Shown: positions 40,980 through 47,138 of the stretch, piece by piece | Numbering within the stretch: the first letter of the stretch is position 1 | Layout of the letters: each line of letters begins with the position of its first letter | Assembly: GCA_965215185.1 (NCBI GenBank) | Contig: OZ244034.1 | Location: 1,920,001 to 1,984,000, forward strand | Direction: 5' to 3' | Source of the DNA: Acidimicrobiia bacterium | GTDB lineage: Bacteria > Actinomycetota > Acidimicrobiia > Spongiisociales > ZC4RG35 | Length of the DNA stretch: 64,000 bases | The notes under the pieces: model-generated | Database searches by the model: none | What the model was told of the DNA's origin: nothing | Seen by the model: the letters and a program-made list of their open reading frames with translations, nothing else | Program-made: the position numbers and the translations under genes

Positions 40980-41923
40980 TAGCGGCCCGGCGTTAACCCG
41001 ATTGGGTGGATCACCCGTCCTTGGCCGCGGGGAACTTTCCGATGGGTGGCCACCAACGGGCCTGGCGGAACGATTTGCCGTCGATATTCCACCATCCGGC
41101 CTCGGGTACGGGTTTGGCAAGACAACACCCAGGCGGCGCTTTCGCTGTCACACACCCGGCATATTATTTGAGAAGTGGCCTTCAAAATACACATGATTGC
41201 GCTCTTAGCTACTGGCACTCCCCGCCGGTCCCACCCAACCGGTGACAAGCAGTGTTTACCTGCCTCGCGAGACCGGCAACCCCGGCTATGTCCGAAGATA
41301 AGCTCGTGAACCGGGAAATCGGGCGGGCAGCTTTAGTGGTGGTGGACGTGCAAAACGACTTCGCTGACCCGCAAGGGTCCCTGTATGTCCAAGGAGCCGA
41401 GGGTGTGGTTGTAGAAGTGAACCGGTTAGTGGAAGATGCCATAGCCGCTGGCAACCCCGTGTTTTACACTCAGGACTGGCATCCGATAAACACTCCGCAC
41501 TTCGCCAAGTACGGGGGGATATGGCCCGTGCATTGCGTAGCCGGTTCTACCGGGGCAGAGTTCCACCCCGATTTGAAAGTCGAAGGAGTGTCCGTGAAAA
41601 AGGGCGTAGCGGGAGAAGACGGCTATTCGGGTTTCACCATGCGGGACCTGACGGATGGCAAAGACCACCCCACCGTTTTGGATTCCCTACTGCAACAAGA
41701 ACACGTCACCAAAGTAGTGGTAGTGGGACTAGCGTTGGATTATTGCGTCAAAGAAACAGCGTTGGACGCGGTGCGGTTGGGATATGACACGGAGGTGCTG
41801 CTCGGCGCCACCGCCGCGGTGAATCTATCCCCCCACGATGGGGTAGTGGGTCAGTTTGCTGGGTAAAGCCGCAGGTCAGAGAGTCAAACTGACCCACTAC
41901 CAAGCTGTGGAAGGAACTCCCCA

Positions 41924-43013
41924 TTGAGACGGCTTAGAGTCGTACCGCTTATTCTGGTTCTGGGAATGATGGCAATCCCAGTAACCGCGCGGGCGGAGAC
42001 ATGCCCGAGTGGCAGTGAAGCGGTTGGATCAGGCGACGACCTCCGATGCCACATCAACGGAGGATTGTTCACACCCCAGGCGGCCCGCCTCGCCCACTCG
42101 CGACGATTAGGGAGCCTCGGCGACGATTAGGGAGGGCCAGGGGACTACTTTCACTGCGCCGAACCCCATGAATCGTCAGAGCCTCCTTTGCGGAGAGAGC
42201 AGGGTAATTCGCACGATTACCACCGTCATTATTGATGGCATTGGATACACGACTACCACATCTCGCACTCAGAAAGCCGGAATCCGATCTCTACCCACGA
42301 TGGATGGTGTTCAGGATCGCACCTCGGATGCGCCAGTCGACTGCCTAGGTACGACCTACAGTGTATGTAAAGGCCCTTACACCATAGAACTACTGACGCG
42401 CGACTCTCGCGTCACGGCGACCGGGAGTCGGGTCACGGTAAACACGGACGCTACGGATAGCTTAGATGATTCGGGCAGGCTAGAGATCCTCTACATCTTG
42501 AAGGGGACGAGGACCGTCACCACCGCGGCGAAGGACGGCTTTCCTGCCTCGGAGAGGATCGATGAATGCGATCTGTACCAGAGGGCGGGTGTGCAGATAG
42601 GGCAACAGCGTAGGTCAGGCATGACCGAAGTGGTGGCACTGCATGCGCCCTCCGCGGCGTGGCTGGGGGACACCACTACCACCACTTGGACCTGCACTCA
42701 GGCGATCATAGATGAGGGTGTGCAGTGCGATCTGAATGCGGTGGTATCCACAACCAGAGCGAATGAATTCCCCACTCCCAGCGGATGCGTGGTCATCGTG
42801 ACCGTGGCTAAGAACGGGAGGGGTCACGGGTCTACAGCGTGTCTCCCTCAGGCACAAGCGCAGTCCCACGGAACCATGATCGGGTTGAACATCAACGATC
42901 TCCCAACTTGCCCCAAGAGCACCAATACAGAAGTGATGAACGGTATAGATCCCACGCCCTCAACGGAGGATGGCGAGGAAGAACCACGGAAGAGGTGCGT
43001 GGCTCGCAACTGA
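41924..43013 (+). pseudogene. Secreted Cys/Thr-rich protein frameshifted by a 19-bp imperfect duplication
   Basis: Signal peptide ending ARA; deleting 42101-42119 joins both ORFs in frame. Confidence 0.7.
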
Positions 43014-43292
43014 GCCACGACGGACGGGACACATCGGAGCTTATAACCGAACTATCGGTAGGGACTCGGCTACCGAATGCTGGCGTTACGCCTGACCTTC
43101 CAGTAGGAGGCCCCTTCTCGTACACTCTCGTGTTCGTATTCTGGTAGTTTCCGCAGCGGGGATGCGGGTGTCATTGTGCCTGGAAACACGGAACCGCACT
43201 TCTCGGCGTTCGCGGCCGGCGTGGCCCCGGGCGGCACCCTTGCCAACCTGGTTGCAAGGATGGGGGTGGCTGTTCGTAAAATGGGGAGAATA

Positions 43293-44395
43293 ATGACGGA
43301 CTCGACCTTGCCGAAGGCGGCCCCCACTGTGGAGGATGCCCATCGGGCTTGTGGCGCCCTTCCGGGCAGCGTGTTCCTGTTCGGAAGCGTTGCCCGCGGC
43401 ACTGCTCGGAAGATGTCCGACATTGACCTTATGGTCATAACAGACCGTGTCGAGGGTGATTACGGATCCGGCAAAAGAAAAAACCTGGGAATAGATTTAG
43501 CACGGGAAGCACGGGAAGCGTGCGGGTTCCGCGTGCAAGTGTTCCTAGTGGACTGGGTCGAGTGGAAATCCCGGTCGGTTGTTTGGGGGACTTCGAACAC
43601 GAAGCGGCTAGTTATGGGTTGTGGGTACGACAGATAGAACCCGGACCCCAAGTACAATGGGACCTGTTGATGTCGCCCAAACAAGTACGCATCTCAGCAG
43701 TGGAAGTTGCACTGGACAACGTATACGAGTCCTTGTCGCGCGTGGCCAGTATGTTGCGCCCCGATTGGAACGAATTGACAGAGATAGAAGCCAGTCGGGA
43801 AGACGTGTATTGGAAGAAAGTAGCAGGTCGTCTGAGCAGGATCAACGTTGAGATTCACTGCTGTTTAGAGGAACTCTTAGTGTCCATGCTACATCTGTCC
43901 ATGGTCAGTGTCGAACGTAACAAGCACAATCTGCTTGTGTTGTTCGAGCAACTTCCAACTCATATCCAGAACGACATCCTCGGATATGTCACTGAAAGCC
44001 AATTGGAATGGGCGCAACAATGGCGAGGCACTTTCTTTTATCGAGGCCCCCAGCATCCTACCGACACGAGTCTCATGTCGGTGGTGACCGCCGACGTGAC
44101 CGCCTACACCGCTTCCCTAGCCAGCGCGTTCATCGGGCCCATGGTGTCATACACGGCGCTCGCTATCCAGGTCAGCCTCGCGGTAGCGGACACAGTGAGA
44201 AACATGCCCCGCGACCCTGAGGTTTCCACCGACCAGCTCGAAAACCTGGTGGGCGGCCTTTTAGAGGAAGCGGAACGGGTACGAGATGCGCTGGCGTACC
44301 CCACGTGGTTGTATCCCGACGGGTCGCCTCCCCATGGGTGGCGACCCCCTGACGATTGGCAACCAAGATTCACCCCAGCCAGCGACCTGGACTAA
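43293..44395 (+). pseudogene. MNT-HEPN-like fusion with a 1-bp frameshift near 43590
   Basis: FLFGSVARG..SDIDL; KHNLLVLFEQLP; WLYPDGSPPHGW. Confidence 0.85.
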
Positions 44396-44599
44396 AAGCC
44401 CCCCGCGTGACCGCACCGTCGGAGCACTTACCCCGCGGGTAGGGTCATTACTCCGTTGCCGTCCAGAGACCACCTGTTGATCTGAATCACCTGTTTGCTC
44501 TTCACGATGTACCTCAACCTCGAACCGTCGTTGTTTACCAGCCGCGGGTCGAATATGTGTGAGAGTGGCTTTGGTCCAGCCCAATCCGGCCAGGGGCCG

Positions 44600-44871
44600 T
44601 TAGTCAGAGGGTTTGTAAGCGGTGATTAGACATTCAGCGGTGAACGGGCCCCACGGCGGAGCTGTTCCATGCACCGCGTAGTGATAGACAGCCGCCCGAT
44701 AAACACTGCCCAGGGCGGTGGCCAGTACCAAATGAGTAATCGTCCACAGTCCGGCCACGCCTAGTGACAACAACCACCAGTCGGGCAAGTCCCAGCCTTT
44801 CAACAGCGCCCATAGCACATAGGCCGAGTAGCCGAAGGGAACCAAAAACAGCAGGACCGTTTTGAACCGCG
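44600..44871 (-). pseudogene. Membrane protein C-terminal fragment (DUF6159-like) cut by the MITE
   Basis: Two hydrophobic helices, then YRAAVYHYA..G..P; 5' end abuts the MITE. Confidence 0.5.
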
Positions 44872-45356
44872 GGTGGTGGGTCACTTTGCTGGGTAAAGCC
44901 GGAGGTCAGAGAGTCAAACTGACCCACCACCCACGATGGGGATAAGGCCATAGAGGTTCTGAAAAACGTGGGAGTGGCGGTTGTCTAATGAGTCCGAATC
45001 GGAAAGGCGCTGACAATGCTTGAAATCCCGGATCAGTTTATCCGGATAGCCCGGGCTGTGAACCGATATAGCGGAGACCGGGAACACCTACAAGAGATAT
45101 GGGACATGCTCGCATCGGTCGAATCCCGCCGAACAGTGGGAATAGTGTTGCTGCGAGGCGCCCAGGAGGTACGGGTGCTCTCCTAAGAGGGGGGCGGATC
45201 GGAACTTCAGTCCCGCCTTCCCGGGTTTCGTTGGATATCCCATCCCCTTGACGGGGACCAGCAGAATATTCTCAACGAGTCCGCCGCTTGTTCTGATCAA
45301 ACACGGACACCTAGTGGGGCTGGCGCGTTATTTCCCCGCTTGGTAGGGGCAGGTGC

Positions 45357-45542
45357 TCACGGGATAAGGTTAGCTGGACCGTGTTGTTCCCATCTCCGAC
45401 CGTCGGTCAACCGCGGGGGCCATAGCTCTGTTCCGTCCATGTCACAAGTCCAAAAACAATCGTCGTCGTCCCAAACCCAATGGTCCGAACTGCCACAATA
45501 TTCGCAGATGTTTCTAGGGTACTTATAGGTAGGAACAGTCAC
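45357..45542 (-). CDS. Small hypothetical Zn-ribbon-like protein
   Basis: CEYCGS...CFWTCD; AAAGG RBS-like sequence. Confidence 0.35.
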   Translation of the reverse strand: MTVPTYKYPRNICEYCGSSDHWVWDDDDCFWTCDMDGTELWPPRLTDGRRWEQHGPANLIP

Positions 45543-45610: not shown

Positions 45611-45943
45611 TTGACATGTCTGCGGGAACGCAGTAGTTTTCAGCGACTGGGTAGAAACCACCAGCAGCGAAAGAGAGAGCAACAGTTGCGCCAGCCGGTA
45701 GACCACAAGAAAGCGATCACTATCAACCCGGACATTCGTTTCGGGAAGCCGTGCATCCACGGTACCCGCATCACCGTGTTCGATGTTGTCGAGCATCTCG
45801 CTGGCGGCATGACCGAAGAAGAAATCTTAGACGAATTCCCCCACCTGACCCTAGACAACATCCTGGCCTGCTACAACTATCTAGCAGACGAAAACATGGT
45901 GCCGAGAAGGCCTCCCGGCCACAAATCGCCCTTCGATTCATAA
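45611..45943 (+). CDS. DUF433 protein (start uncertain)
   Basis: ITINPDIRFGKPCIHGTRITV..LAGGMT..IL..FP.LT. Confidence 0.85.
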   Translation: MTCLRERSSFQRLGRNHQQRKREQQLRQPVDHKKAITINPDIRFGKPCIHGTRITVFDVVEHLAGGMTEEEILDEFPHLTLDNILACYNYLADENMVPRRPPGHKSPFDS

Positions 45944-47014
45944 GCCCCGGGTTTGCGACTCCCAAGGCCTTTCCCAAGCGGAAAGCGGAAAACCATGGGC
46001 GTAAACCCACCGGCTATCAACAGCGGCTTTGTTCAACTGTTCAACCGCCGCCTCGGTTCCCAAAGTCGTTTCCGACAAGGTTTCCGCTATTTCCGGATAG
46101 TTCTCAGCGAAGAACCGGACAACCTGACCGGCTAGACAGGTGACCAGGTCCACATACCGAACAGTGCCCTGGTCGTAGGGAACACCCGAACCTGTGGCGT
46201 ATCGCCGCGGGTGAGCCAGGATCGCGCCAGCCGCGACAGCCGGATACTCATCGTCGTCGGGTGGGTGTTCCGGATTCCAATAACCGGCTTTGCGCCACTC
46301 TCCCACCCAGCCCACATCCCCGTCGGAGCAACCATCGAAAATGTGTTCTCTGATTCGCTTTGGGTAATCCCCGACCACCTGCAACAACCGTGTGCGGTTT
46401 TTGAACGGCGTGCCGGTGAGGTGACACAACAACAAGAACGCTCGTTCCATCAGATAGTGCGCCTGGGCGTTGGCCCATCCCAACCGATACTTCCAATGCC
46501 CCCAAAACCGCCCCGCGTCGCCAGCGTCTAAGGCCTCGGTTTCCAACGACCCGAGCGCGGTCATGTAGTAAACCAACATCCCCGCGGTTTTTCTCATTAG
46601 GGCCAACGCGAAATCCACCGATTCGACAAGCACCTGCCGGGCCGGTTTGATTCCGGTCCAATCCACTTCGTCGCCGGGACGCACCCACTTCAACATTCGT
46701 CCCTCTCTCAAAGTGTTCGCTTCGATAGTCGTGGGCACCTTAATGTACGAAACCCATTTGGGCCAGTCGATCTTGATCACTCCCGCTTTCCAACCCGACA
46801 TTTCCGATGCCATCCCGGTCAGTTCCATGTCAAAAAACCGGTCCGGGTTGTCGTCTCTGTCCACGATGCACAGCAGATCAATGTCCGATCCGGCATGAGC
46901 GTCGCCTCGGGCGACGGAACCACCCACGAACACCGTACCAGGCAAAACTTCGGCTATCCGAAAAGCGTCCACCATGGTCGGCGTGCGGACAGTGTCAAGG
47001 TTCCCACGGGACAT
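45938..47014 (-). CDS. Intact MNT-HEPN-like fusion protein
   Basis: GSVARGD..SDIDL nucleotidyltransferase motif, helical HEPN-like half, WVYAHGFPLSAW tail. Confidence 0.85.
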   Translation of the reverse strand: MSRGNLDTVRTPTMVDAFRIAEVLPGTVFVGGSVARGDAHAGSDIDLLCIVDRDDNPDRFFDMELTGMASEMSGWKAGVIKIDWPKWVSYIKVPTTIEANTLREGRMLKWVRPGDEVDWTGIKPARQVLVESVDFALALMRKTAGMLVYYMTALGSLETEALDAGDAGRFWGHWKYRLGWANAQAHYLMERAFLLLCHLTGTPFKNRTRLLQVVGDYPKRIREHIFDGCSDGDVGWVGEWRKAGYWNPEHPPDDDEYPAVAAGAILAHPRRYATGSGVPYDQGTVRYVDLVTCLAGQVVRFFAENYPEIAETLSETTLGTEAAVEQLNKAAVDSRWVYAHGFPLSAWERPWESQTRGL

Positions 47015-47046
47015 GCAACACCCGATGATAAAACCGGCATGAGGCC

Positions 47047-47138
47047 TTGGTAGGGTGTTGGCCATCACCTCTGACCTGCGCCTTAACAGGGGGTCTCGGG
47101 AGGACACCACAATTTAAGGAGGGGGGGACACCACAATT
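47047..47138 (+). repeat. Dispersed ~90-bp repeat, copy 1
   Basis: TTGGTAGGGTGTTGGCCATCACC, CTGACCTG, two GGACACCACAATT. Confidence 0.75.

Follow-up and report, generated by a model that had tools for sequence, protein, structure and literature searches.

Composite transposons bounded by non-autonomous elements are described in Acinetobacter, where, in the sections of PMC6382973 drawn on here, a pair of 439-bp miniature inverted-repeat transposable elements (MITEs) surrounds class 1 integrons and a pair of MITE-297 elements (502 bp) surrounds a 76-kb mer region. The same sections describe Tn6645 of Moraxella osloensis, a composite with two copies of the IS1-family element ISAba3, ends that begin GGTGGTGTTTCA.., and 8-bp duplications (PMC6382973). 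Here we describe a 3,090-bp transposase-free unit in which two 60-bp MITEs enclose unrelated genes and which interrupts a pncA-type nicotinamidase gene of an Acidimicrobiia bacterium. It lies in a 64,000-nucleotide stretch (the window, C1:1920001-1984000) of the single-contig, 3.12-Mb genome G000. Pairs of miniature inverted-repeat elements that mobilise the intervening genes in trans are also known as integron mobilization units and Tn3-derived TIME pairs, which depend on a Tn3-type transposase, make 5-bp duplications and are much longer than the MITEs in the window. A further group, the ISMhu11-type subgroup of ISfinder, comprises IS1-family elements with passenger genes; a literature search for "ISMhu11" together with "IS1 family" returned no papers.

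The window unit shares features with each of these systems. As in the Acinetobacter composites, so far as the cited sections present them, a miniature non-autonomous pair brackets unrelated genes with no transposase inside; unlike them, its MITEs are 7 to 8 times smaller and of IS1 lineage, its cargo is not resistance-related, its host is actinobacterial, and its empty site is seen as an allele in natural populations. With Tn6645 as described there it shares IS1-family ends (GGTGGTG.TTCA in Tn6645) and an 8-bp duplication at the outer ends of the unit, but Tn6645 is bounded by full transposase-encoding insertion sequences (ISs), whereas the window unit has no transposase. Since gene-mobilising MITE pairs are already described in those sections of PMC6382973, the unit is best regarded as an exceptionally clear case, in nature, of genes captured and moved by non-autonomous elements rather than as a new mechanism. 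Its filled site, its empty site in wild populations and an autonomous partner in a sister species are all visible together, and 60 bp per side (two 17-bp ends and 26 nt) appear to be enough. Mobilisation in trans by a pair is also common to the integron mobilization units and TIME pairs, with a different transposase family and longer elements. Like IS1 passenger-gene elements, the G006 element described below and its 2.0-2.4-kb relatives in other phyla carry extra genes between the same ends, transposase included, whereas the window unit has a whole MITE at either side, hence four inverted ends, and is non-autonomous.

The two MITE copies are in direct orientation and 56/60 identical, with mismatches at positions 4, 13, 31 and 57, and they are separated by 2,970 bp (Table 1). 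The end motif occurs four times in the window against 0.46 expected, a count reached by 0/100 shuffles, and both copies are predicted to fold into a long DNA hairpin (-19.2 kcal/mol for MITE1). The family is short and non-coding, carries terminal inverted repeats and is present in multiple dispersed copies, as expected of MITEs. When the 8-bp flanks at 11 left MITE ends of G000 were compared with those at 12 right ends (132 comparisons), the sole 8/8 match was between the outer flanks of the composite, which both read CACGATGG; the best other comparisons were two at 6/8. On the inner side the flanks read AAGCTGTG and GAACCGCG and are unlike each other. At the joint 12 nt are repeated, CC + CACGATGG + GG, and because GG and CC are the MITE ends the duplication proper is 8 bp. 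The locus is thus an element pair around unrelated DNA with a duplication at its outer ends alone, the arrangement of a composite transposon. A first-pass annotation made from the sequence had claimed two direct 60-bp copies, 17-bp terminal inverted repeats on both, and an exact duplication at the outer ends only, and all three claims held.

The same annotation had proposed that removal of the 3,090 bp and one duplicate restores pncA. The reading frame of the upstream piece resumes in the downstream piece, giving ..SPHDG followed by DKAIEVLKNVGVAVV and the stop codon. In 19/19 relatives examined, pncA is uninterrupted and collinear with both window pieces, and the C-terminal tails (..SPDDGDKSIAALEAAGVSIT-type, e.g. 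..AVNLSPDDGDKSIAALEAAGVSIT) are homologous to the downstream piece. These relatives include L041, from G027, and the result holds without it. We also compared window positions 41200-45400 with contigs from four public runs, X1 (study P1), X2 and X4 (P2) and X6 (P3); parts of a run without cover, such as X1 at 41905-42045, were excluded from the evidence. In contigs of X1 (record 1; 3,130 bp, depth 9.9) and X6 (record 25; 1,647 bp, depth 3.7), position 41831 is joined directly to 44930, so that 3,098 bp (3,090 + 8) are skipped. Each of these contigs has one other letter, 12 letters at the joint fit either side, and pncA is intact there. The proposed excision product therefore exists as an allele, and since X1 and X6 come from two further studies, natural populations are polymorphic for the insertion, which is hence recent. 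The contigs of X2 and X4 are identical to the window and break inside the repeats, and between them they span each of the four MITE junctions with no other letter. The two refuting conditions that the first-pass annotation had named, misassembly at the junctions and a pncA C-terminus in relatives unrelated to 44940-44988, are both decided in favour of the insertion, and the annotation's placement of a transposase-free MITE-cargo-MITE unit in pncA as one piece is supported by the Pfam scan of the cargo, the empty-site allele and the homologous C-terminus.

Against pncA of 16 congeners, the interrupted gene shows 73-81% identity. A second, intact pncA in G000 (84049-84570) is 78-86% identical to the same genes and, on these identities, is likely the orthologue; the interrupted copy appears from the same comparison to be a spare, more diverged paralogue. 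Since the intact copy is the closer one to the congeners, loss of the interrupted gene was probably tolerated.

Table 1. Features of the interrupted pncA locus and the composite unit (window coordinates)
Feature	Position	Strand	Basis
5' part of pncA-type nicotinamidase/isochorismatase paralogue, 184 codons + 2 nt	41288..41841	+	Pfam PF00857, E 2.9e-27
Left target-site duplication, CACGATGG	41834..41841	.	Sequence and flank comparison
MITE copy 1 (MITE1), 60 bp	41842..41901	+	Inverted 17-bp ends 41842-41858 / 41885-41901, 17/17 complementary
Cargo gene 1, secreted protein, family unassigned by Pfam/PADLOC	41924..43013	+	Open reading frame list
Cargo gene 2, MNT-type nucleotidyltransferase domain + all-helical C-terminal domain	43176..44395	+	PF01909, E 1.6e-9
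Cargo ORF 3, 94-aa hydrophobic (membrane-type)	44600..44884	-	Open reading frame list; no Pfam family
MITE copy 2 (MITE2), 60 bp, direct orientation	44872..44931	+	Ends 16/17 complementary
Right target-site duplication, CACGATGG	44932..44939	.	Sequence and flank comparison
3' end of interrupted pncA, DKAIEVLKNVGVAVV + stop	44940..44988 (49 nt)	+	Frame and C-terminal homology, 19 relatives

A genome-wide search for the terminal repeats, as suggested by the first-pass annotation, found no autonomous partner in G000: the end-motif scan (up to 4 mismatches) returned the MITE units and scattered single matches, with no IS-like spaced pair. One end pair, 6.2 kb apart at 1670536/1676685, was ruled out as an element as it has no duplication. 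A motif scan of the family gave lone ends in sister species, and the partner was located in one of these, G006. There, a 4,091-bp element (L069:573-4663) has exact inverted 17-bp ends, GGTAGTGGGTCAGTTTG, and an 8-bp duplication, TACTAAAG; the 17-bp ends of the window MITE are identical to both of its ends. The element encodes a 258-aa transposase, whose stop codon lies inside the end repeat, together with about 3.3 kb of passenger open reading frames (ORFs) without Pfam families. The G006 transposase contains helix-turn-helix (HTH) domains and PF03400 (42.5 bits, cut-off 24.1), and the second of the two transposases scanned with Pfam matched PF03400 at 41.4 bits. The best NCBIfam match of the G006 protein is the IS1 model NF033558 (E 9e-22, 77.9 bits), under the 100-bit equivalog cut-off, and on these profile matches the protein is classed as a distant IS1-family member. 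The first-pass annotation had guessed a Mutator-like transposase of IS256/ISKra4 type from the length of the duplication. This assignment was wrong and is corrected here to IS1: in the transposases with these ends, Transposase_mut (PF00872) is absent, and only PF03400, HTH families and, in one of the two scanned, PF13610 were matched.

Relatives of the G006-type transposase number at least 567 across many phyla in a scan of species genomes. In an end-pair search of 46 loci, eight gave a pair, and duplications were read after anchoring on the GG ends. All elements of the lineage with both ends found (8/8) have 8-bp duplications; 8/8 duplications were read by script in seven elements (six from other phyla and G006), and that of L114 was read by eye. 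One of the eight pairs, at L097, was discarded as a false pairing. The ends read GGTAGTGnnTCAGTTTGAAA, with GGTAGTG or GGTGGTG in all of them. The duplications differ from element to element (TACTAAAG, AAAAATTA, TACCGTTC, GGGCGAAC and others). ISfinder describes the IS1 family by target duplications of 8-9 bp and by GGnnnTG-type ends, and the lineage elements agree with this description in both respects.

Elements of this lineage also carry other genes. The 2.0-2.4-kb transposase-bearing relatives in other phyla routinely have passenger genes, and G004 contains a 1,355-bp transposase-free element (L068:587-1941) with the same type of ends and a DUF222-HNH endonuclease gene as its sole cargo, the two flanks being AAGGTATG and AGGGTATG (7/8). 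Both the G004 element and the routine passenger genes support one-step movement in trans. A further 1,428-bp stretch with the same ends, in G013 (L070:553-1980), holds a DNA methyltransferase-HNH fusion gene and has no clear duplication; its flanks agree at 5/8 if an upstream 100-bp MITE-like unit is included.

We consider it probable that the unit is a composite non-autonomous transposon that moved whole into pncA through an IS1-family transposase acting in trans. About 2.97 kb of unrelated genes would have become enclosed between two 60-bp MITE copies derived from an IS1-family element. A DDE transposase of the IS1 family, provided in trans, would then have recognised the outermost ends, the left end of MITE1 and the right end of MITE2, and moved the entire 3,090 bp into the redundant pncA paralogue, and repair of the staggered 8-bp cut would have left the CACGATGG duplication. 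Beyond the observed structure, its duplication, the empty site, the end identity with an IS1-family element and the 8-bp duplication of that lineage, we infer a single transposition event and an origin for the transposase. When the G006 protein was compared with G000 by tblastn, only three partial pieces were found (residues 14-202, 110-237 and 204-254), so the cargo must have moved in trans. With fragments only in this genome, the enzyme may have been lost later, or it may have come from another strain or mobile element; alternatively, the insertion may have arisen in a close relative, from which recombination spread the allele. PF03400 genes are present in 6/16 congeners. One of the G000 pieces is an IS1-family transposase remnant (1465829-1466551) that is 57% identical to the G006 protein and lacks both termini. 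Its position is about 700 bp upstream of a cargo gene 2 paralogue that encodes 383 aa (1467239-1468390), with no recognisable ends nearby.

Several observations weigh against transposition of the whole unit. G000 has no intact transposase and gives 0 PF03400 matches. A single insertion of the unit is known, and the cargo was not seen elsewhere with another duplication in G000, 40 relatives or the JGI contigs. The similarity between MITE and IS ends at 17 nt, and the 26-nt interior is untraceable to the sampled IS ends; this interior, especially CCGCAGGTCAGAGAG, varies less between species than a passive spacer would be expected to. Cargo identity to the window is only about 97% in X1 and X6, against about 99.9% for the pncA flanks, and the X6 cargo meets a MITE at 44760, 111 bp before the point where it does so in the window. 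The assembly may have been made from the sample of X2 and X4, which hence would not be independent support for the junctions, so that their cover mainly excludes a misjoin. Finally, the 8-bp duplication is absent around 10/11 full solo MITE copies of G000, and the remaining one (1649189) has a possibly decayed flanking duplication. Mobility of the family as single units is therefore not supported in this genome. The solo-copy duplications may have been erased by adjacent deletions of the IS1 type or by other border rearrangements. The MITE copy at 1669225 is consistent with this, since it has its right flank in common with its counterpart in G011 and a different left flank.

The main rival is a two-step origin, in which a solo MITE inserted into pncA with an 8-bp duplication and a circle of cargo and one MITE later entered through homologous or unequal recombination inside the 60-bp repeat. 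The same end product would be expected, solo MITEs are common (10 other copies in G000), and the mismatched left flank at 1669225 suggests that MITE borders are prone to rearrangement. We nevertheless regard this route as unlikely. The four runs contain no one-MITE allele, only the filled form or the clean 3,098-bp skip, and homologous recombination works poorly over only 60 bp. The copies themselves also argue against it. A crossover inside the repeat would give chimeras, yet positions 4 and 57, which pair with each other in the inverted ends, have changed complementarily, reading A..T in copy 1 and G..C in copy 2. Each copy thus keeps its own matched pair, which argues that both are whole units. 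Another G000 copy (1658773-1658832) is intermediate between them, with two changes from MITE1 and two from MITE2, and could be near their common source.

Site-specific integration would instead require a circle whose junction, with 17-bp arms around the 8-bp CACGATGG, was used by a tyrosine or IS110-type recombinase at the matching 8-mer in pncA. Such a hypothetical junction does resemble a recombinase core site in its geometry, and an IS110-family transposase gene (L063:7703-8728, G000 1647202-1648227, minus strand) has a degenerate MITE (1648460-1648516) about 230 bp away. However, the cargo has no recombinase, the pncA sequences beside the 8 bp are unlike the MITE arms, and elements with the same ends have the unrelated 8-bp duplications given above, the signature of a staggered DDE cut with no fixed core. 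As these duplications all differ, integration of the recombinase type is very improbable. An assembly artefact, with 3.1 kb misplaced into pncA by repeat collapse or a misjoin, is scarcely credible. The assembly and the read contigs do differ at two indels in the cargo, and the contigs break inside the MITEs, but the X2 and X4 contigs cross all four junctions without another letter, and neither a perfect 8-bp duplication nor a frame-exact empty site is expected of a misjoin.

The first-pass annotation described the cargo of the transposon as a secreted protein, an MNT-HEPN-like gene and a membrane-gene fragment. The secreted protein, the nucleotidyltransferase and the membrane-type ORF were all recovered; the HEPN identity was not. 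No transposase domain was found by Pfam in the five cargo ORFs scanned, and no recombinase either. Cargo gene 1 matched no Pfam or PADLOC family. In the assembly it is split into a signal-peptide ORF (41924-42130) and a 281-aa ORF (42168-43013), whereas in X2, X4 and X6 19 letters enter and 20 leave at 42086-42120 (a net -1 indel), which places both halves in one frame. Cargo gene 2 is similarly split (43176-43637 and 43520-44395), and one extra T behind 43591 in all four runs joins its frames into about 406 codons. As each indel fuses a split ORF by frame arithmetic, the cargo frameshifts are probably assembly errors or isolate-specific changes. The first 13 nt of cargo ORF 3 are MITE2 sequence, which means that the ORF has either lost its original 5' end or taken one from the MITE.

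The product of cargo gene 2 has a minimal nucleotidyltransferase domain, with matches to both PF01909 and PF18765, and a profile of its paralogues matches the minimal nucleotidyltransferase 1wot in the PDB (E 6e-5). Its 267-aa C-terminal part has no sequence match in Pfam, PADLOC or the PDB, whether to a HEPN domain or to any other. In a predicted model of an intact 390-aa paralogue (5-row alignment), the C-terminal part is all-helical, but the mean predicted local distance difference test (pLDDT) score of the model is only 50.4, which is inadequate for searching by fold. Resemblance to KNTase_C/Ant-IIb-type two-domain transferases, as indicated by a protein atlas, is a lead only. Paralogous loci of cargo gene 2 occur at seven other places in G000, five of which match both halves. 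The 390-aa paralogue is encoded in the window itself (45938-47110, minus strand), 1 kb downstream of the interrupted pncA and outside the transposon. The cargo as such was not found at a second site in G000 or in 40 relatives, where the relatives gave two matches of 28-33 nt (E ~9e-4), and a pattern search for the 281-aa protein in JGI metagenome contigs gave 93 stretches with no relative among them.

G000 has 12 copies of the MITE, two of them truncated or degenerate. Diverged copies (75-88% identical) are present in 6/16 congeners, with none in the 24 genomes of other genera searched. We found no further matching flank pair, and hence no other composite, in G000 and, by eye, none among 18 copies from relatives; the 3' pattern of the MITE had 0 matches in metagenome contigs. 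There are 13 PF01909 matches in G000, and a PF01909 gene is found at most 1.5 kb away from 8 of the 12 MITE copies (10/12 within 5 kb), with none of 100,000 random placements reaching the 1.5-kb count. After the copies were collapsed to six loci, four were still within 1.5 kb, which again was reached by 0/100,000 random placements. In relatives the link is weaker: a nucleotidyltransferase gene is within 1.5 kb at 3/16 loci scanned (L045 and L052 by Pfam, L050 by tblastn), and several of the others have RES, DUF433/DUF5615 or TIR genes nearby. The association fits either co-mobilisation or common residence in toxin-antitoxin or defence islands. The first-pass annotation saw in such MITE pairs a route for MNT-HEPN expansion. 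The MITE-nucleotidyltransferase association is suggestive of a route of this kind, whereas there is only one duplication-flanked composite and the HEPN part is unconfirmed, so the proposal stands as a hypothesis only. It does suggest a testable link between the MITE and the spread of nucleotidyltransferase genes of toxin-antitoxin or defence type. More broadly, we tentatively suggest that the 60-bp IS1-derived MITE and its end-sharing relatives might form a working shuttle for transposase-free cargo (nucleotidyltransferase/toxin-antitoxin-type, HNH and secreted), served by an outside transposase, and that this shuttle might have spread the nucleotidyltransferase family in the genus.

In G000, the copies (L062-L066 and the window) are usually 20-800 bp downstream of MNT-type nucleotidyltransferase genes, and one such gene sits between the degenerate MITE at 1648460-1648516 and the full copy at 1649189. 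In G007, two loci (L045 and L052) have MITE copies with a common conserved flank and an adjoining nucleotidyltransferase gene, which has a HepT-like partner in L052. The interior of the MITE is in opposite orientations at these two loci.

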